Shown here: one piece after another, positions 1,422 to 16,533 of the stretch | Position numbering within the stretch: position 1 is the stretch's first letter | Layout of the letters: each line of letters opens with the position of its first letter | From: a virus | Lineage: Duplodnaviria; Heunggongvirae; Uroviricota; Caudoviricetes | Reading direction: 5' to 3' (one strand) | DNA length: 44,726 nt | IMG/VR virus record: IMGVR_UViG_2802429225_000004 | Position numbers and translations under genes: made by a program | Notes under the pieces: model-generated | Database searches by the model: none | Told to the model about the DNA's origin: nothing | Seen by the model: only the letters and a program-made list of their open reading frames with translations

Positions 1422-3896
1422 TTAAAAATCAGCCTGATTCGGGATCAGTTTTTGCCAGATTGCTGAAACGTATTTCGCCTGGTGACGGGCATCATCCAGC
1501 GCATGGTGGCGCACGCCTTCAAATGGAATAACTGTTCTGGCATCGAAGTCGATAGTTTTTCCCAGTTCAACGATTGTACGTACATCGCGATCGTTGTAGT
1601 AACGCCACGGGCAGGGGATGTTCAGGCGTTCGTACGAGGTTCGTAAAATAGTGTTGTCGAAAGTTGCACCATTGCCCCATACCTGAACGAATTTTTCATT
1701 CGAGTACTCATTGATGAATTCCCGAAATTGAATAAGAGCGTCAACCAGTTTTACCTGATCAACTAAAATTGCAGATCTGGCTTCGCTGGACTGAGCAAGC
1801 CACCATTCGATGGTGGAACCATCAGGTACAGCACCCGTGTCCATAGCGTCAACCAGGCTGATAACGATATAAAATGTTGGCCCGATTTCCCCGGTCTGCG
1901 GATCGAAGAACACAGCACCAATAACCACGATGGGGGCATTACTTTTTTTACCCATCGTTTCAAGGTCGATCATCAGGTGGTACCACACTCTGCTGGTGGA
2001 TGTGCTTTTATGATGACCATTCACATTAATTAAGGGATCTGCCGCCTCACCAGTTTCACTATCGCTGGCGTGGTCCTGAGCGCCGCTAGTGTCCCCCTTG
2101 TGTGGATGTTCAGCGCCTTCCATTTCCTCCGGATCATTTTCCTGAACTTCAACCTGATTCTCTTCATCGAATGTTTCCTGATATGTTGCGTTGCCCATCA
2201 CCGCGCCACAATCAGGGCAGTTGCCGCCACCGCTCTGACCGCAGGCGGTGCAGGTTTTTTCTGGTTCTTGTTGCGCTACTGGTTCGGATTGTTTCGTTTC
2301 TGGCTCGTTTTGTAACGCATTTTGGCTGTTTTGTTCCGCTTTCTGGTCGTTCTGTTCCGTTTCTTGCTGGTTCTGGTACACAGAATCGCGGGTTTCAATC
2401 CCCTTCACCCATTTCGGATCATTCGGGTCGCTAATCCCTGCAACAAATTCTCCGCGAGAGGCAGCAAGCAACTGATTGGCGTCAGGCTGGCTGACTGCCT
2501 GCATAATTTTGTTTACTTCGTCAGCGGTAACTTTTACCGGCTCTGGTTGTGCGGTCGTGTCAGATGCACCAGTATTTTGTTGTGAACCTGAGTATGTGCC
2601 GTTTTTGCGGGCAAAATATTCTTCTTTCGTGATTTCAGTAGCCCCGGCAGCCAGCGCCTTATTCAGACCAGAAAGTTTGTTTGCACGACCATATTTTTCG
2701 CCATCCTTATCGGTGAAGAGGAAGTAGAACGGCCCCTCACGCTCTACAGATGGTTCAGTTTCCAGCGCGCTTTCATTTTTTTTGGTATCAGATACTTCAG
2801 TTTCCACTGCATCAGTTTGTGCTGCTGACGGCTGGAGAATATCAGCAGTGTTCTGGTCTGTTTCTTCATCCTCAAACACGCCCTTTGTCGCCAGGTATTC
2901 AGTGATGTATTTGTTCAGTGCCACGGGATCCTTGTGAATGTCGATCGGACGCTCACGGACAAGGCCAAAAATAGTCTGACGGTCATAGCGAATGGCATCA
3001 GGCTGTTTGCGCATTGATGCGGAAATACGCTTCCAGTCTTCGCGATCGCTCTCGATAACTTCATTTTTTGCCCAGCGATGGATGCTGCCGTCAATGTTTC
3101 CGGCATCAATGTCACCAGGCCACAGAGCGTAGGCCAGTTCATCATCCAATGTTTTCCATGTCTGCTTGTATTCGCGACGAATAACTGCAGTGACAGGGGG
3201 GATTTTTTCTGCTGAGTTTTCAGTGTGCTGTCGGTTGACTCTGGTGCGGGCGAGATCAACAACAGACGTGTATTTTCCAGTCTCTTTGCGCTCCGCGTCC
3301 TGCCGTTTTTTCCAGTTACGTAATTCAGCCTGAATTTCGGGCCATTTGGCACCCGGCTTACATTTGTGTTTACCCCATCCGATAGCGAACAGTTTGCGTT
3401 CCGGATACATAGCGTTAATTTCTGGTGTTTTCATCAGTGCTTCAACGATATGCCCGTCGAATGTCGCCACGTCTTCCTGCAGTAACTCCTGTGCGCTAAT
3501 CACCATATCAACGGTGATGTTTTCACATGTACCGAACTTAACCAGGACCGCGTTCTGTACTTCAAGGGACAGCTTGTCAAAATTGACGTTCATCGGATCG
3601 GATTCTGGTTCGACCGGAATAAAGGAAGCGGATTCCTCATCCCAGCGGTTTTCCTGCATATATTCGGTATCCCAGGAGTCGATAGCAGGGCGGGGCATGC
3701 CGGGTTTATCCTCGCAGACAAGAAATTTATAAGCGCAGTCCTGAGCAGCCGGATATTGCTCCAGGAATTGCCAGGTAAATTTGGCACGGGCGCGGCGTTC
3801 GTCACCGGCTTCAATGGCAGTGGCTACAGCAACTGCACCTTCTTCCTTTATTGCCTGTTCGTCCGGAATGGCGGCGCAAATAAAGACTTTACTCAT
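1422..3896 (-). CDS. Large prophage exonuclease with C-terminal DnaQ-like DEDDh 3'-5' exonuclease domain (family often annotated exodeoxyribonuclease VIII in enterobacterial prophages)
   Basis: 824-aa ORF; C-terminal motifs MIDLETMG, WGNGATFDN, HHALDDA match DEDDh exonuclease Exo I/II/III; long acidic Q/E-rich low-complexity middle region with CxxC...CxxC zinc-ribbon-like motif. Confidence 0.75.
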   Translation of the reverse strand: MSKVFICAAIPDEQAIKEEGAVAVATAIEAGDERRARAKFTWQFLEQYPAAQDCAYKFLVCEDKPGMPRPAIDSWDTEYMQENRWDEESASFIPVEPESDPMNVNFDKLSLEVQNAVLVKFGTCENITVDMVISAQELLQEDVATFDGHIVEALMKTPEINAMYPERKLFAIGWGKHKCKPGAKWPEIQAELRNWKKRQDAERKETGKYTSVVDLARTRVNRQHTENSAEKIPPVTAVIRREYKQTWKTLDDELAYALWPGDIDAGNIDGSIHRWAKNEVIESDREDWKRISASMRKQPDAIRYDRQTIFGLVRERPIDIHKDPVALNKYITEYLATKGVFEDEETDQNTADILQPSAAQTDAVETEVSDTKKNESALETEPSVEREGPFYFLFTDKDGEKYGRANKLSGLNKALAAGATEITKEEYFARKNGTYSGSQQNTGASDTTAQPEPVKVTADEVNKIMQAVSQPDANQLLAASRGEFVAGISDPNDPKWVKGIETRDSVYQNQQETEQNDQKAEQNSQNALQNEPETKQSEPVAQQEPEKTCTACGQSGGGNCPDCGAVMGNATYQETFDEENQVEVQENDPEEMEGAEHPHKGDTSGAQDHASDSETGEAADPLINVNGHHKSTSTSRVWYHLMIDLETMGKKSNAPIVVIGAVFFDPQTGEIGPTFYIVISLVDAMDTGAVPDGSTIEWWLAQSSEARSAILVDQVKLVDALIQFREFINEYSNEKFVQVWGNGATFDNTILRTSYERLNIPCPWRYYNDRDVRTIVELGKTIDFDARTVIPFEGVRHHALDDARHQAKYVSAIWQKLIPNQADF

Positions 3897-3976
3897 TTTG
3901 TTTTAACCTCATTACAGATTTAAGGGTGAACAAATCCCTGCCATTGCTGGCATCTAAAAATGAAACCGGATATTAA

Positions 3977-4180
3977 TTACGGTGCTGCTTTAAGTCCTGC
4001 CGGGATTTCGTTATTGTCCATGCGAATAACTTTATCAACCGGATAACAGTTGCCGGGAATTTTCTGTTCCGCTGCGGCAGCCATGCATTCTTTCATTGAG
4101 TCATGTATACCAATAACAAGATCGACTGGTTCGCCTGTATTAAGAAAAACTGTCAGAACGAGTGCAAATGCTGTATTCAT
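3977..4180 (-). CDS. ydfD: YdfD-like small secreted/lysis protein (DUF1482-type)
   Basis: Internal Met start MNTAFALVLTVFL... gives about 67 aa with N-terminal hydrophobic segment; resembles remembered Qin prophage YdfD; directly downstream of dicB-like gene as in the dicB operon. Confidence 0.5.
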   Translation of the reverse strand: MNTAFALVLTVFLNTGEPVDLVIGIHDSMKECMAAAAEQKIPGNCYPVDKVIRMDNNEIPAGLKAAP

Positions 4181-4182
4181 TG

Positions 4183-4365
4183 TCAGCGTCCTTTTTGCAT
4201 CAGGCGTAAACGGGCCAGCATTGAAACAATGCATATTTGATTTAATAGCTCCCGTTCGTGTTTTCTCTTATTAATGGCATCTTCAGTAAATACAGGGTTA
4301 CTGATTCTGACACCAATTTCAAAACAACCTTCAGACGTATTGACGTTTGGTAATAACGTTTCCAT
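4183..4365 (-). CDS. dicB: DicB-like cell-division inhibitor
   Basis: 60-aa product METLLPNVNTSEGCFEIGV...SMLARLRLM closely resembles remembered E. coli DicB; GAGGA RBS upstream; follows DicF-like terminator hairpin. Confidence 0.6.
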   Translation of the reverse strand: METLLPNVNTSEGCFEIGVRISNPVFTEDAINKRKHERELLNQICIVSMLARLRLMQKGR

Positions 4366-4548
4366 TATCGCGTCCTCAACAATGAATTTTGTGATGCGGT
4401 GCCTGGTGCCTCCAGGTGACGTTAACCAGTTAATAATTAACGCCGGATACAGAGAACCCACCCATAAGAACCAATACGGAAGTCAACTGGCCTTTTTAAC
4501 TGTTCCGCGTGCGCTGAGCCGCATTCACCGCATCACAAAATTCACTTT

Positions 4549-4606
4549 AAAAAGGGCGGGTATCACGGGGAAAACAAAACGGATACCCGCCAAAAGGTAA
4601 TCAACA
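4549..4606 (-). ncRNA. dicF: DicF-like sRNA ending in a rho-independent terminator
   Basis: Minus-strand hairpin GGCGGGTATC...GATACCCGCC followed by TTTTT; downstream flank AAAGTGAATTTTGTGATG.GGTGAATGCGGCT.AGCGCACGCGGAACAG matches remembered dicF-dicB intergenic sequence of Qin prophage; 5' end not determinable. Confidence 0.5.
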
Positions 4607-4932
4607 TGGGTTGTTGTGGCGGGGTTGTCACTCAGGCGTATGGTCAACCTGACAACCCGGTGCCACTAATGGGGTAAGGATAACCCCGCCATACTTACCG
4701 CCGCGCCATTTCGCGGATTGCCACAACCGGAAGCGCACGGTCGAATTAAATTTAACGACACCGTACAGACAGAAGAACTTCGCCGTGCGCTTTCGCGTTA
4801 TGCCCTGACTTTTCAGGGATATATCCTTTCAGTAAACTGTCAGTGCCGGATTCTTATCCGTGTCCGGCGCACGACTACACGTGGCAGCGTGTTGGTCTCC
4901 ATTTTTAACCCAGAACCTCAATGGAGGATAAA

Positions 4933-5142
4933 ATGCCAAACAGACCAATACATCCGCTTATTGAAAAACAGATTGAATGTCTGGTTAATCAACTCAGGCA
5001 ATCAGGGTTATTAAAAAACCATTCAGAGTTAAGGCTCACGAAATCAGCATTTGACGATAAATTAAACAATGTGCTTTATAATGGCATCATTGATTACAAT
5101 CGTGGTGTTGGTCGTCGTGGCCCTGCTGGCACCGCCCTGTAA
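4933..5142 (+). CDS. Hypothetical 69-aa protein, antisense-oriented to the surrounding minus-strand operon
   Basis: ATG preceded by GGAGGA; stop abuts the convergent stop of the 212-aa minus-strand gene; no recognisable domain. Confidence 0.3.
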   Translation: MPNRPIHPLIEKQIECLVNQLRQSGLLKNHSELRLTKSAFDDKLNNVLYNGIIDYNRGVGRRGPAGTAL

Positions 5143-5781
5143 TTACCAGTCAATCCAGAGCGGATAGTGTTCAGCGTAAATATAGCTGTATACATCAAGG
5201 TTGTATTTGTGGTCTGCTTTTAACAGGTCACAAATACATGTTGCTGCTTCCAGGGCTGAAGCTCTGTTACTGAACATCCACGTCGCAACATTCCAGCTAT
5301 TCTCTGTATCCCATTCTTTCGCAAGAGTTGACACTCTGAAGGATCCGTTGGCGTTGCCATCAAATACTTCTGTTTCCAGGTTCTTAAGCAATGCCTGATG
5401 AACTTTTGTCAGGTATTCAGCCGGAATCTTGCCACGGATTCTGATGAGATTGTCATAAACAAACATATTTCCCGCGTATGGCGATTTTTCTTTCTTGTTT
5501 TTTAAACCAGCATCATGAGCAAACTGATCAATTTCTTCTTTCATTGGTTTCGTATTGATGTTTTGCGCTGTCGTTTCTGCAATTTTCTTTGCCACACTCT
5601 CTGAGTCGTGTTTATTTACAGACGAACAGAAATACAATCCGGTAAACGCATCGCGCACATTACGAGCCATATTATCAATGTCTTTCTTCGTTGCAGATTC
5701 TAATTCAACTTCGGACAGACGTTGACAAAGTGCATGCGCTGCAATCACCTTGATTTCTTTTGGTAACTCTTTAAATTCCAT
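5143..5781 (-). CDS. Hypothetical 212-aa protein in the ydfC slot of the dicB-type operon
   Basis: Long ORF, AT-rich relative to neighbours, tightly packed behind YdfB-like ORF; no motif recognised by eye. Confidence 0.6.
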   Translation of the reverse strand: MEFKELPKEIKVIAAHALCQRLSEVELESATKKDIDNMARNVRDAFTGLYFCSSVNKHDSESVAKKIAETTAQNINTKPMKEEIDQFAHDAGLKNKKEKSPYAGNMFVYDNLIRIRGKIPAEYLTKVHQALLKNLETEVFDGNANGSFRVSTLAKEWDTENSWNVATWMFSNRASALEAATCICDLLKADHKYNLDVYSYIYAEHYPLWIDW

Positions 5782-5792
5782 CTATAACCCCG

Positions 5793-5921
5793 TTAGTCGA
5801 TAGATTTTGCCGAACTGTAAAGCGCCTGTTTAAACTCACTGAAGCTGAGAGCTTCTTCGCCTTCGGCAAGGCCTTCGAAGTATTCTTCGTAAGCCTTTTC
5901 CATGATTGTGTCGAAATCCAT
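5793..5921 (-). CDS. ydfB: YdfB-like 42-aa acidic protein
   Basis: 42-codon ORF MDFDTIMEKAYEEYFEGLAEGEE... placed 1 nt after YdfA-like stop; below the 60-aa ORF-track cutoff, translated manually. Confidence 0.4.
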   Translation of the reverse strand: MDFDTIMEKAYEEYFEGLAEGEEALSFSEFKQALYSSAKSID

Positions 5922-5922
5922 A

Positions 5923-6078
5923 TCACTCACCTGAGTTTCTTTCCAGCCAGCGACGGGCACCATTTTCGGTTTTAAACATTTTGCTTTTGGTATACGTCAT
6001 CGCGGTGAACGTGCCGTCCTGGTTGGGAAACACGCCGTACACCAGAGATTCGTTGTTGCCAAGATCGATAGTATCCAT
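5923..6078 (-). CDS. ydfA: YdfA-like small protein (DUF1391-type)
   Basis: Internal Met start MDTIDLGNNESLVYGVFPNQDGTF... (51 aa) with GAGG RBS; first gene after the palindromic operator/promoter. Confidence 0.5.
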   Translation of the reverse strand: MDTIDLGNNESLVYGVFPNQDGTFTAMTYTKSKMFKTENGARRWLERNSGE

Positions 6079-6260
6079 GTTGACCTCATTTCCCCTTAAC
6101 GCCGGGGTAGCGGAACAAAAACCTGCTGCATAGTTAAAGTTGAACCCTGCCGTCATGTTCTTACGCCTCGGGCTGGCTACTTAACCCCTGACCACTGCCT
6201 GGTAACTCGAAGTATTGCCCTGCATTCTGTGGGGCGGGGTGGGTTGGTAAAAATAATCTA

Positions 6261-6297
6261 CAATTAAAAACTGTTTTGTGTCAACAGTTTTTAATTG
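6261..6297. promoter_or_regulatory. Perfect 15-bp inverted repeat operator (CAATTAAAAACTGTT-N7-AACAGTTTTTAATTG) in the promoter region of the dicB-type operon
   Basis: Read directly from sequence; related half-sites AAAACTGT/ACAGTTTT recur in the repressor/cro divergent region. Confidence 0.5.
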
Positions 6298-6304
6298 TTG
6301 TCTT

Positions 6305-6334
6305 AGACAAAAAAACTCCCTCGAATGAGGGAGT
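6305..6334 (-). terminator. Rho-independent terminator ending the repressor-antitoxin-toxin operon
   Basis: Hairpin ACTCCCTC-GAAT-GAGGGAGT followed on the minus strand by T-tract; 17 nt after the ParE-like stop. Confidence 0.55.
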
Positions 6335-6350: not shown

Positions 6351-6638
6351 TCAGATAGAGAAGGGAAATTGTCGACGGGCATGCACAATATTCGCAATTT
6401 CAATGCTTGAAGTTGCTACTCGGTACAACACGATATAATTAGGGTGAACCACAAGTTCCCGCAAACCGGATACTCGATCACTTAGCGGATATAGATATGG
6501 GTGCTCAGAGAGGGTTAAAACAGACGTTTCAATACGTATTTTTAGTCTGCGTGCTGCAGGAATGTTTTCCTTAGCAATATAGGTTACGACCTGACGCAAA
6601 TCATCGCGAGCAGATGGTAGCCATAAAATGGGTAACAT
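6351..6638 (-). CDS. RelE/ParE-family toxin (ParE2-like)
   Basis: 95-aa ORF with conserved RelE/ParE core pattern (...YIVLYRV...IEIANIVHARR); start overlaps stop of upstream small antitoxin ORF. Confidence 0.6.
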   Translation of the reverse strand: MLPILWLPSARDDLRQVVTYIAKENIPAARRLKIRIETSVLTLSEHPYLYPLSDRVSGLRELVVHPNYIVLYRVATSSIEIANIVHARRQFPFSI

Positions 6639-6829
6639 TACTCGCTCCTGTTAGTTGCAGCAATTTGAGCAATAAGATTTTCCATTTCAGCCATTACCTC
6701 GTCATGTGGAATTGCGGGGCGAGGGTCTGCAAGGCTTAACGTCACTTTAGCGCGCAACCATTCGTTGTAACTGTTTTCTTGTTCGGTAGTTTCGAATTCT
6801 GAAACTATCGGAGAAAGGGCTGTACTCAT
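6638..6829 (-). CDS. Small antitoxin (PaaA2-like) paired with ParE-family toxin
   Basis: 63-aa acidic ORF directly upstream of and overlapping the toxin gene; size and position match the PaaR2-PaaA2-ParE2 arrangement of O157 prophages. Confidence 0.5.
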   Translation of the reverse strand: MSTALSPIVSEFETTEQENSYNEWLRAKVTLSLADPRPAIPHDEVMAEMENLIAQIAATNRSE

Positions 6830-6856: not shown

Positions 6857-7258
6857 TCACGCCCGGCGGCTTTTTTGTGCCGCCAACCATCGGGCAATAG
6901 TTTCTTCCATTGATTTTTTCTTGTCTTTGATTTCTTGAAGCATTTTTTCTTGGTCTTCCTCTGGAAACGCACTAAAAGCTTGGAGCAGTTCGCGTTGGCG
7001 AGGACCAATTTTCATTGTGTCAGGGGTGAAAATTTGCTCCCCCTCATCAGGAGGCAATAAAAACCAATGCAATGGATGCCCTGTAACCTCAACCAGTTTA
7101 TCCAAACTTGAGGCTTTAGGCGTAGCCTTACCGCTGACCCATTGTTGAACTGTTTGTTGTGTCACACCAATTCTACGGGCAAGTTCAGCCTGGCTCCATC
7201 CAGTTTCCTGAAGAAGCTTGCTGATTCTGTACATAGATACTTCTAGGGCGTTCATCAT
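6857..7258 (-). CDS. HTH_XRE repressor (cI/DicA/PaaR2-like), probable prophage immunity repressor
   Basis: 133-aa ORF with HTH ISKLLQETGWSQAELARRIGVTQQTVQQW; divergent from cro-like gene; palindromic operators nearby. Confidence 0.75.
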   Translation of the reverse strand: MMNALEVSMYRISKLLQETGWSQAELARRIGVTQQTVQQWVSGKATPKASSLDKLVEVTGHPLHWFLLPPDEGEQIFTPDTMKIGPRQRELLQAFSAFPEEDQEKMLQEIKDKKKSMEETIARWLAAQKSRRA

Positions 7259-11665: not shown

Positions 11666-11949
11666 GATGGCTTTTGTGGACAAAGACGGCATCGAAGTAG
11701 AGAGCTCAACTCACTGGATGCCGCTACCGGAACCACCGCAGGAGGTGAATCAATGACCTGGCCTGAGGCATTCACCACGGTAGGAATTGCACTGGCGGTG
11801 GCGCTGGTGGTGTATTCGATTTGCCGCTGGGGATAAAAACGATTTGCGGGAAAAGGATAGTTAAGTAGAATGGCTGCGGGTGCTTGAGGCTATCTGTCTC
11901 AGGCATGAACACCAACGGCAGATAGAGAAAAGCCCCAGTTAACATTACG

Positions 11950-12020
11950 CGTCCTGCAAGACGCTTAACATTAATCTGAGGCCATATCTATGACTTGCAC
12001 ACGTAGGTTAGCCTCTTACG
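11950..12020 (-). ncRNA. Putative Sok-type antisense RNA region of the hok locus
   Basis: Inferred from the canonical hok/mok/sok organisation only; boundaries not resolvable from sequence. Confidence 0.25.
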
Positions 12021-12046
12021 TGCCGAAAGGCAAGGAGAAGCAGGCT

Positions 12047-12202
12047 ATGAAGCAGCAAAAGGCGATGTTAATCGCCCTGATCGTCATCTGTTTAACCGTC
12101 ATAGTGACGGCACTGGTAACGAGGAAAGACCTCTGCGAGGTACGAATCCGAACCGGCCAGACGGAGGTCGCTGTCTTCACAGCTTACGAACCTGAGGAGT
12201 AA
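12047..12202 (+). CDS. hok: Hok-family type I toxin (HokD/RelF-like); overlapping mok frame begins at 11990
   Basis: 51-aa product MKQQKAMLIALIVICLTVIVTALVTRKDLCEVRIRTGQTEVAVFTAYEPEE is a hallmark Hok sequence; upstream overlapping reading frame as in mok. Confidence 0.85.
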   Translation: MKQQKAMLIALIVICLTVIVTALVTRKDLCEVRIRTGQTEVAVFTAYEPEE

Positions 12203-16379: not shown

Positions 16380-16455
<76 letters not shown>

Positions 16456-16458
16456 TAT

Positions 16459-16533
<75 letters not shown>

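Follow-up and report, generated by a model that had tools for sequence, protein, structure and literature searches.

A candidate two-gene module with a structured leader at the ydfC position of a dicB-type prophage operon

The virus record IMGVR_UViG_2802429225_000004 of IMG/VR, a stretch of 44,726 nucleotides analysed here at its full length and referred to below as the window, carries in a dicB-type early-left operon an open reading frame (ORF) of 212 codons, hereafter the large gene. Comparison with its relatives shows that the conserved unit at this position consists of the C-terminal domain of the large protein together with a convergent gene for a protein of 69 amino acids (aa), hereafter the small gene, which are inherited as a block across lambdoid and P2-like prophages while the N-terminus of the large protein is exchangeable. 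A first-pass annotation made from the letters alone had reported an unrecognised, AT-rich 212-aa ORF at positions 5143-5781; this position is exact, the gene lying on the minus strand with an ATG start, and its GC content of 40.8% compares with 50.4% for the whole window. The convergent partner gene, the two-domain build of the large protein, the structured leader RNA and the hypervariable slot described below were not part of that annotation. The pair is present in about one tenth of complete Escherichia coli genomes, O157:H7 and related pathogens included, where its members are annotated only as 'hypothetical protein'.

Conserved unit of C-terminal domain and small gene

The features on which the argument rests are as follows.

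5143..5781, minus strand: large gene, 212 aa (PHROG 2151, 'Ybl81'); ATG-initiated ORF of 212 codons
5587..5781, minus strand: N-terminal helical 'slot module', codons 1-65; from alignment, PHROG matches and AlphaFold2
5491..5586, minus strand: linker, codons 66-97, of low model confidence; from the predicted local distance difference test (pLDDT), blastn breaks and Mantel analysis
5146..5490, minus strand: C-terminal domain, codons 98-212; from AlphaFold2, relatives and the ratio of nonsynonymous to synonymous substitution rates (dN/dS)
4933..5142, plus strand: small partner gene, 69 aa; ORF with GGAGG 5 nt ahead of its ATG, matching phrog_4274

The two genes are convergent, with stop codon abutting stop codon. 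That the C-terminal domain and the small gene form the unit of inheritance follows from their linkage across loci, their Mantel correlation and a break in the linker of a Salmonella relative. The C-terminal domain was adjacent in all of the loci retrieved via the small protein (67 of 67 viral and 10 of 10 from metagenomes), and among 40 unique alleles the Mantel coefficient reached 0.95 between C-terminal domain and small gene, as compared with 0.69 between the N-terminal module and the C-terminal domain of the same gene. In the Salmonella locus L012 the C-terminal domain forms a stand-alone ORF of ~125 aa that still abuts the small gene, and the blastn blocks between this locus and the window break inside the linker, at window position 5501/5525, where recombination breakpoints are likely to fall. 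The same locus holds two tandem cassettes at 3225..4627, each small ORF with its own leader copy: one consists of the C-domain-only ORF and the 69-aa gene, the other of a 119-aa N-module protein and a different convergent ORF of 64/68 aa.

The Salmonella relatives of the C-terminal domain (P0152, P0171 and P0141) are ~35% identical to it and have a wholly different N-terminus, P0141 additionally carrying an inserted helix-turn-helix (HTH) of the XRE type. Their genes are located directly after integrase, repressor and cox in P2-like prophages, and each is followed by a convergent gene of 64-69 aa that overlaps its 3' end. The encoded small proteins are 36-56% identical to that of the window (E ~1e-24), with a common SGLLK motif and R..PAGxxL tail. 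Between the two branches the small protein, at 49-56% identity, is more conserved than the C-terminal domain at ~35%.

Loss of the small gene was found in two settings. In the '...WIDWFKG' clade (L212, L213 and L218; P0057, P0067 and P0076) a clean deletion of ~165 nt takes most of the small ORF together with its start codon, whereas the leader is kept and the large gene is intact; in L296 the 3' half of the small gene was lost independently, again beside an intact large gene. An intact small gene next to a decayed or absent C-terminal domain was not seen in the 77 loci retrieved via the small protein. Counts from complete genomes are unusable for such an analysis of orphans, as the deletion allele covers ~80% of a two-gene query and divergent N-terminal modules lower the coverage. 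A further class of 7-8 loci with a seemingly broken small gene was dropped as an instance of decay, as all go back to a single A7-to-A6 change that is possibly a sequencing error: the O157-type small gene has an A7 run at codons 3-6 (AACAAAAAAAGA), and eight assemblies, all of them older drafts (L146, L150, L152, L157, L177, L191, L203 and L208), show A6 and hence a frameshift, which may reflect either a sequencing error in the homopolymer or on/off variation through slippage.

The small protein is basic (pI 9.7) and helical-looking, its R..PAGxxL tail forming the conserved C-terminus, and its gene has a dN/dS of 0.11-0.25. The C-terminal domain of the large protein is mildly acidic (pI 5.3). 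Neither protein contains a hydrophobic segment, the small one being soluble with a maximum 19-residue Kyte-Doolittle average of 0.22. Pfam and PDB searches gave no match of the small protein to an HTH or ribbon-helix-helix (RHH) family.

Family, selection and two-domain build of the large protein

The large gene starts 11 nt past the ydfB stop codon with a GGGG Shine-Dalgarno-like box ahead, an arrangement in which it appears translationally close-coupled to ydfB. Its product matches the phrog_2151 hidden Markov model (HMM) end to end (residues 1-212 against profile 1-212, E=1.4e-119); PHROG 2151 is listed as a phage protein family of unknown function. A search of 5.8 billion proteins returned 142 homologous clusters of 61-100% identity, nearly all from Escherichia and one from Salmonella, under no other names than 'hypothetical' or 'Ybl81'. 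With entries for it in PHROG and among hypothetical proteins, the sequence family is hence not new. Of 5,426 complete E. coli genomes, 568 carry the large gene at full length, O157:H7 among them. Hypothetical proteins of this family in E. coli prophages, such as WP_000394548.1 of O157:H7, show 61-88% identity and have the same operon position and partner gene as in the window. The window allele itself is a diverged family member with at most ~90% nucleotide identity to complete E. coli genomes. Among 185,579 species-representative genomes no relative of either the large or the small protein was found.

Values of dN/dS amount to 0.17-0.30 for the whole gene, 0.5-0.7 for the N-terminal module and 0.11-0.19 for the C-terminal domain, the latter at dS 0.5-0.9. 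This low ratio in the C-terminal domain and the 142 homologous clusters show the ORF to be real and subject to purifying selection. A chance reading frame or a decaying pseudogene, which would be favoured by nothing beyond the lack of annotation, is refuted by the selection analysis and conflicts in addition with the full-length copies in complete E. coli genomes, the confident AlphaFold2 model of the C-terminal domain and the motifs kept in distant homologues, so that its probability is negligible.

Alignment of 27 members revealed that residues 98-212 are almost invariant, while residues 8-65 occur in at least three discrete and strongly divergent versions, giving a mosaic. An exhaustive HMM search of 1.84 billion representatives matched only 47 proteins; about 35 of these are covered over residues 1-55 alone (ME[FL]KDLP...GLY) and join this part to other C-termini of 42-201 aa, and only two, P0141 and P0152, carry the C-terminal domain. 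The N-terminal module matches PHROGs 1363, 9419, 6937 and 33007. Its profile also matches nine separate stretches of P0154, a giant protein of 5,212 aa, at E=1e-7; instead of a true relative, P0154 may simply be a helical protein with repeats.

AlphaFold2 modelling followed by structure searches, as had been proposed at first pass, gave a weak full-length model (pLDDT 62) with helices at residues 8-24 and 32-55 and pLDDT below 50 at residues 76-99, where the linker (codons 66-97) is probably disordered according to the model. The C-terminal domain modelled together with its Salmonella relatives reached a mean pLDDT of 78, a predicted template modelling score (pTM) of 0.72 and a core of ~90, with a predicted beta-beta-alpha-beta-beta-alpha-beta two-layer sandwich of ~115 aa. 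Its conserved motifs are PYxxNMFVYDNLIRIxGxIP and VFDGxxNGxF. The invariant residues are mostly hydrophobic or located in loops, and because they include no obvious catalytic set, the sequence suggests a binding domain. The domain is confined to Escherichia and Salmonella prophages.

Searches for characterised relatives bear out the view that no motif is recognisable. Pfam, NCBIfam and PADLOC gave no credible match for either protein (NCBIfam matches at E ~0.02 stayed far below their cut-offs), PADLOC-DB 2.0 contained no defence family at E<=1 for either, and PADLOC searches with the relatives and the alternative cassette proteins returned nothing except HTH-only matches. PDB sequence and profile searches with the C-terminal domain, the small protein and the N-terminal module yielded nothing below E=0.1. 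Foldseek found no PDB match for the low-confidence full-length model, the best hit of a BFVD structure search (E=1.4e-3) was to uncharacterised proteins, and fold searches with the C-terminal domain returned generic alpha/beta sandwiches only, with a likeness to ACT-type regulatory domains that is likewise generic. None of these searches linked the protein to a characterised housekeeping phage protein, and the dN/dS values indicate an ORF maintained by selection, so that neither of the two findings which the first-pass annotation had named as decisive against its view was obtained. DNA-mimic anti-restriction proteins of the Ocr/ArdA type are strongly acidic; the large protein, with a pI of 5.9 and a net charge of -4, is only mildly so.

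Leader RNA and promoter of the small gene

The region preceding the small gene has the following features.

4810..4838, plus strand: putative weak sigma-70 promoter, TTTTCA, 17 nt, TAAACT; below the promoter-scan threshold
4843..4932, plus strand: conserved leader of the small gene, ~90 nt with three hairpins; from alignments and folding z-scores
4843-4870, plus strand: leader hairpin 1, invariant
4873-4897, plus strand: leader hairpin 2, in three sequence types with complementarity kept
4897-4902, plus strand: CUCCAU anti-Shine-Dalgarno box, pairing with AUGGAG at 4921-4926

The alignments show that this leader is conserved whichever small ORF comes next. Folding z-scores were -3.2, -3.7 and -2.2 for the plus strand as opposed to -0.8 for the minus strand, and in a MAFFT alignment 82.5% of cells were paired, compared with 32-47% when the partners were slid. 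Compensatory pairs occur at 35-51 and 59-81, helix 1 has two conserved G.U pairs in whose place the opposite strand would show A.C mismatches, and the pairing of the CUCC(A)U box with the Shine-Dalgarno sequence shows one compensatory A-U to U-A swap. These comparative data, to which only about three sequence clades contribute, give moderate support to a structure in which the leader masks the Shine-Dalgarno sequence of the small gene. A scan of 4843..4932 with the covariance models of Rfam 15 found nothing, neither at the gathering threshold nor with the limit relaxed to E<=10; the leader is a candidate for a new cis-regulatory RNA.

The hairpin 1 pattern was found in at least 120 IMG/VR contigs. 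In 57 of them a Shine-Dalgarno sequence and a small ORF follow, the latter belonging to at least 14 unrelated families of 57-101 aa. In the window the -10 hexamer ends 4 nt ahead of hairpin 1, and because a -10-like hexamer ends 3-5 nt ahead of it in every context, unrelated upstream DNA included, this spacing suggests that the small-gene transcript starts at hairpin 1. Another promoter-like site at 4905..4934 was ruled out as the promoter of the small gene, as it overlaps the start codon.

The Shine-Dalgarno sequence contains an in-frame upstream ATG (4921..4935; MEDKM...) that would give a product of 73 aa as an alternative to the 69-aa form. Such an ATG is common to leaders ahead of unrelated small ORFs (L012, L100-L133), and some Salmonella leaders have a 4-codon mini-ORF (ATGGAGAGTAAATGA) in its stead.

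A hypervariable slot

The gene that faces a leader-served small ORF usually encodes an N-module protein whose C-terminus varies. Across related prophages of E. coli and Salmonella the slot is occupied by many different cassettes. The occupation of the ydfC slot, as described at first pass, applies to the window; in PPompW and Evi, by contrast, the N-module gene follows ydfC and does not replace it. A general rule of one C-terminal family per small-ORF family was withdrawn, as two C-terminal modules have several partners.

Among the alternative cargo ORFs, one of 94 aa (L100, L061; MAKFTVRIELRD...) scores 21.2 bits against Pfam GhoS, for which the cut-off is 21; GhoS is a type V antitoxin endoribonuclease. 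Others (MPNKPCPACN..., MSATTTKCPKCEN...) resemble zinc ribbons.

A wider interpretation, which we offer as a doubtful but possible one, is that the dicB-type early-left operon and the post-cox site of some Salmonella prophages represent an undescribed plug-and-play conflict locus of switchable lysogeny/lytic effector/antagonist pairs. The constant N-terminal module and the leader occluding the ribosome-binding site might then frame interchangeable cargo, comprising at least 14 unrelated small proteins encoded in reverse orientation and C-terminal domains of comparable diversity, although we would not consider this probable. It is equally speculative that the 212-aa/69-aa pair would be one such pair, without relatives among known defence, anti-defence and toxin-antitoxin families.

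Proposed function and competing explanations

The reading that we favour, with a confidence somewhat short of even, is a two-protein accessory module expressed from opposite strands, in which the small protein would be made in the lysogen and the large protein would be made early in the lytic phase as its antagonist. That the two products act together has, on the genomic evidence, slightly better than an even chance; the direction, with the small protein as effector and the large one as antagonist, is a tentative assignment that may well prove wrong. In the lysogen the operon promoter would be repressed, so that only the small gene could be expressed, transcribed from a weak promoter of its own and translated under the control of the leader. 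Upon induction or infection, operon transcription from the site at 6255..6298 would run antisense across the small gene and the large protein would be produced, whose mildly acidic C-terminal domain could bind and neutralise the basic small protein. The latter would be a lysogen-phase effector, plausibly an exclusion or host-modulating factor because it is located where sieB sits in Rac, and the large protein an early-lytic antagonist for which a further role via the N-terminal module is conceivable. If true, this would constitute a new small module governing conflict between prophage and host or between phages. The proposed direction is based on the survival of the large gene after deletion of the small gene, which in turn was never found alone, and on the higher conservation of the small protein between branches; on the XRE-type HTH of P0141, as many antitoxins and regulators have it; and on the sequestered ribosome-binding site of the small gene and the complementary charges of the two partners.

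Several observations weigh against this reading. Two C-terminal modules each occur with two or three different small ORFs, and with pairing elsewhere not one-to-one, the argument for coupling therefore rests on the 212-aa/69-aa pair specifically. The deep association goes back to essentially two lineages, one in Escherichia/Salmonella lambdoid prophages and one in the Salmonella cox operon, and adjacency by itself favours co-inheritance. That one clade has lost the small gene is also compatible with a large protein working alone. The covariation in the leader derives from only about three sequence clades, and the small gene has no more than a weak promoter, predicted from sequence. Finally, K-12-type loci keep hairpins 1 and 2 without a small ORF, and because of this persistence the two hairpins may have another role.

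In a rival explanation the two genes are independent neighbours, the large protein being an early-lytic host-takeover or anti-defence factor on its own and the small one a separate reverse-oriented moron like sieB. We regard this as possible though rather unlikely, and the same holds for its corollary that co-occurrence would result only from adjacency between two recombination anchors, the N-terminal module and the leader. The many-to-many combinations of other slot modules agree with it, as does the persistence of the leader in K-12 without the small gene, and a whole clade keeps an intact and conserved large gene after deletion of its neighbour. DicB, DicF and YdfD, likewise products of the operon, each act on the host alone (PMC5069750). 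Against mere adjacency, the pair has survived divergence to 35-56% identity, two prophage types and a full replacement of the N-terminus; the small gene was never without the C-terminal domain in the 77 loci; the C-domain-only ORF of L012 still abuts it; and the Mantel coefficient for the two is 0.95. The opposite direction of action, in which the large protein would act early as a toxin that joins a fixed N-terminal module to a varying C-terminal 'warhead', appears improbable to us, and so does a role of the small protein as constitutive immunity protein or antitoxin shielding the lysogen from leaky expression. Such a layout, in which the N-terminal part stays the same, the C-terminal part differs and a small gene lies next door, on the other strand and under its own promoter, recalls pore-forming colicin and polymorphic toxin-immunity loci. 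Pore-forming colicin operons have convergent, separately promoted immunity genes, and one leader-served small ORF reaches the GhoS threshold; the reported toxicity of neighbouring operon genes (PMC5069750) would fit as well. However, the window pair shows no toxin or immunity family and no secretion or translocation features, PADLOC and toxin-antitoxin families gave no matches, and the C-terminal domain has no recognisable catalytic or toxin fold. Retention of the large gene without the small one, together with a small gene that was never found as an orphan, is the reverse of the usual toxin/antidote pattern, and it would be surprising if translation of an antidote were so tightly occluded. 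Within the slot, pairing is also not strictly one-to-one: the combination of the C-terminal domain with the 69-aa family is kept across lineages, while two other C-terminal modules associate with 2-3 small ORFs. Still less probable, and in our view quite unlikely, is a small protein that binds DNA or RNA as a regulator of the cassette or operon, with the C-terminal domain as its sensor or oligomerisation domain. Its size of 69 aa, its basic and helical-looking character and its basic tail would be compatible with this, as would the fusion of the C-terminal domain to an HTH in P0141 and the resemblance, at a generic level only, to ACT-type regulatory sandwiches, but the small protein matches no HTH or RHH family, and the use of the same leader and slot by at least 14 unrelated small ORFs better suits interchangeable cargo.

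Comparison with known systems

Other described layouts share single features with the pair. YdfC of the K-12 Qin prophage has the position between ydfB and the dicF region in common with the large gene, and K-12 keeps hairpins 1 and 2; yet YdfC has 72 aa, no N-terminal module and no similarity to the large protein (no BLASTP alignment to the 212-aa protein at E<=100), and K-12 is without the convergent small gene. In Rac the order is ydaG and ydaF (minus), sieB (plus), then kilS and kilR (minus); sieB, encoded on the other strand, converges on and overlaps ydaF, the homologue of ydfA, and precedes a small RNA (sRNA) and kil; the small gene of the window takes the equivalent relative position. 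SieB of Rac, lambda and P22 is a superinfection exclusion protein, and if the analogy holds, the lysogen would express the small gene. There is, however, no homology: the window protein is a soluble one of 69 aa without a hydrophobic segment, and Rac sieB has no copy of the leader described here.

Toxin-antitoxin systems of type II or type V (GhoST) are likewise two-gene units on mobile elements with a small partner, and the GhoS-like alternative ORF and the XRE-type HTH of one large-protein relative add to this likeness, whereas the window genes are convergent and not co-transcribed, and neither product matches a toxin-antitoxin family. Type II systems are marked by co-directional genes and recognisable toxin and antitoxin families; the window pair is convergent, and Pfam, NCBIfam and PADLOC gave no such family for either protein. 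In lambda, OOP RNA and cII provide a case of convergent antisense control. The window would resemble it in convergent transcripts that meet at the 3' end of an early gene, with mutual interference as a possible outcome, but here the convergent transcript encodes a conserved protein. Overall, the pair resembles toxin-antitoxin, immunity and sieB-type layouts and departs from each in homology, orientation or orphan pattern. Literature searches on ybl81, the WP accessions, the ydfABC genes and sRNAs of enterohaemorrhagic E. coli prophages returned no paper on the family, the pair or the leader. As far as these searches show, there is no description of the two-gene unit or of its movement between the early operons of lambdoid and P2-like prophages, of the hypervariable slot framed by N-terminal module and leader, or of the leader RNA itself.

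Operon context and cassette boundaries

The window is an Escherichia lambdoid prophage, its integrase end being 98.9% identical to E. coli chromosomes. The surrounding operon comprises the following elements.

6857..7258, minus strand: DicA-like HTH repressor (Pfam HTH_3)
6638..6829, minus strand: PaaA2-type antitoxin (Pfam)
6351..6638, minus strand: ParE toxin (Pfam)
6255..6298, minus strand: promoter-like site, TTGACA, 18 nt, TAGATT, upstream of ydfA; from a promoter and terminator scan
5923..6078, minus strand: ydfA homologue (DUF1391), upstream of the large gene in the same operon (Pfam)
5793..5921, minus strand: ydfB homologue, upstream of the large gene in the same operon (K-12 identity)
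4881..5794: cassette extent relative to K-12 Qin (blastn breakpoints)
3977..4596, minus strand: downstream operon part with dicF-like element, dicB and ydfD
~4549..4596, minus strand: dicF-like element
4183..4365, minus strand: dicB (Pfam DicB)
3977..4180, minus strand: ydfD/DUF1482 (Pfam DUF1482)

On the minus strand the DicA-like repressor is followed by the PaaA2/ParE pair, ydfA, ydfB and the 212-aa ORF, and then by the dicF-like element, dicB, the DUF1482/ydfD gene and an exonuclease. Homologues of ydfA, ydfB, dicB and ydfD are thus ordered on one strand downstream of the repressor, as in a dicB-type early-left operon. Comparison with K-12 Qin by blastn gave 97.5% identity over 6116..5795 (ydfA-ydfB) and 84% over 4880..3900 (dicF region, dicB and ydfD), and between these breakpoints a cassette of 914 bp stands in place of the 302 bp that hold ydfC and its flanks in K-12. 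This replacement agrees with the swapped-in accessory DNA proposed at first pass, although the swapped-in DNA comprises two genes and not the large gene alone. The Qin-type assignment holds for ydfA, ydfB, dicB and ydfD, with two qualifications. The dicF-like element keeps the terminator hairpin and flanks, while its body is different and 9 nt of the 5' part are absent; the Rfam DicF model (RF00039) scores 76.7 bits in K-12 but matches nothing in the window, whether at its gathering threshold or down to E<=1, and the element is only a diverged relative of DicF. In addition, the PaaA2/ParE pair is inserted before ydfA, at a position where K-12 Qin has nothing.

The TTGACA of the promoter-like site is contained in a 39-bp perfect palindrome (ACAATTAAAAACTGTTGACACAAAACAGTTTTTAATTGT) at 6260..6298 on the minus strand. 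The site corresponds in position to K-12 dicBp between dicA and ydfA, but the palindrome region is not homologous to the dicBp region. Operator and repressor-controlled promoter of the operon that includes the large gene are probably both located here. A strong terminator-like hairpin at 6315..6334 follows the PaaA2/ParE pair.

Downstream of the cassette, a GC-rich segment at 4613..4756 is 83% identical to 6987..7139 of the Salmonella P2-like locus L008, where it also stands downstream of the cassette while the surrounding operons differ; this segment may be another conserved RNA or processing element travelling with the slot. Between the dicF-like element and dicB, Rfam STnc100 gave a sub-threshold match at 4388..4542 on the minus strand (33.5 bits; gathering threshold 47), and K-12 has the same match at the equivalent place (34.4 bits; L001 4433..4642). 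Elsewhere in the prophage, an Rfam match to sok antitoxin RNA at 11878..12052 on the plus strand (109.5 bits) implies a hok/sok-type module, and two adjacent tRNA genes are located at 16380..16530 on the plus strand.

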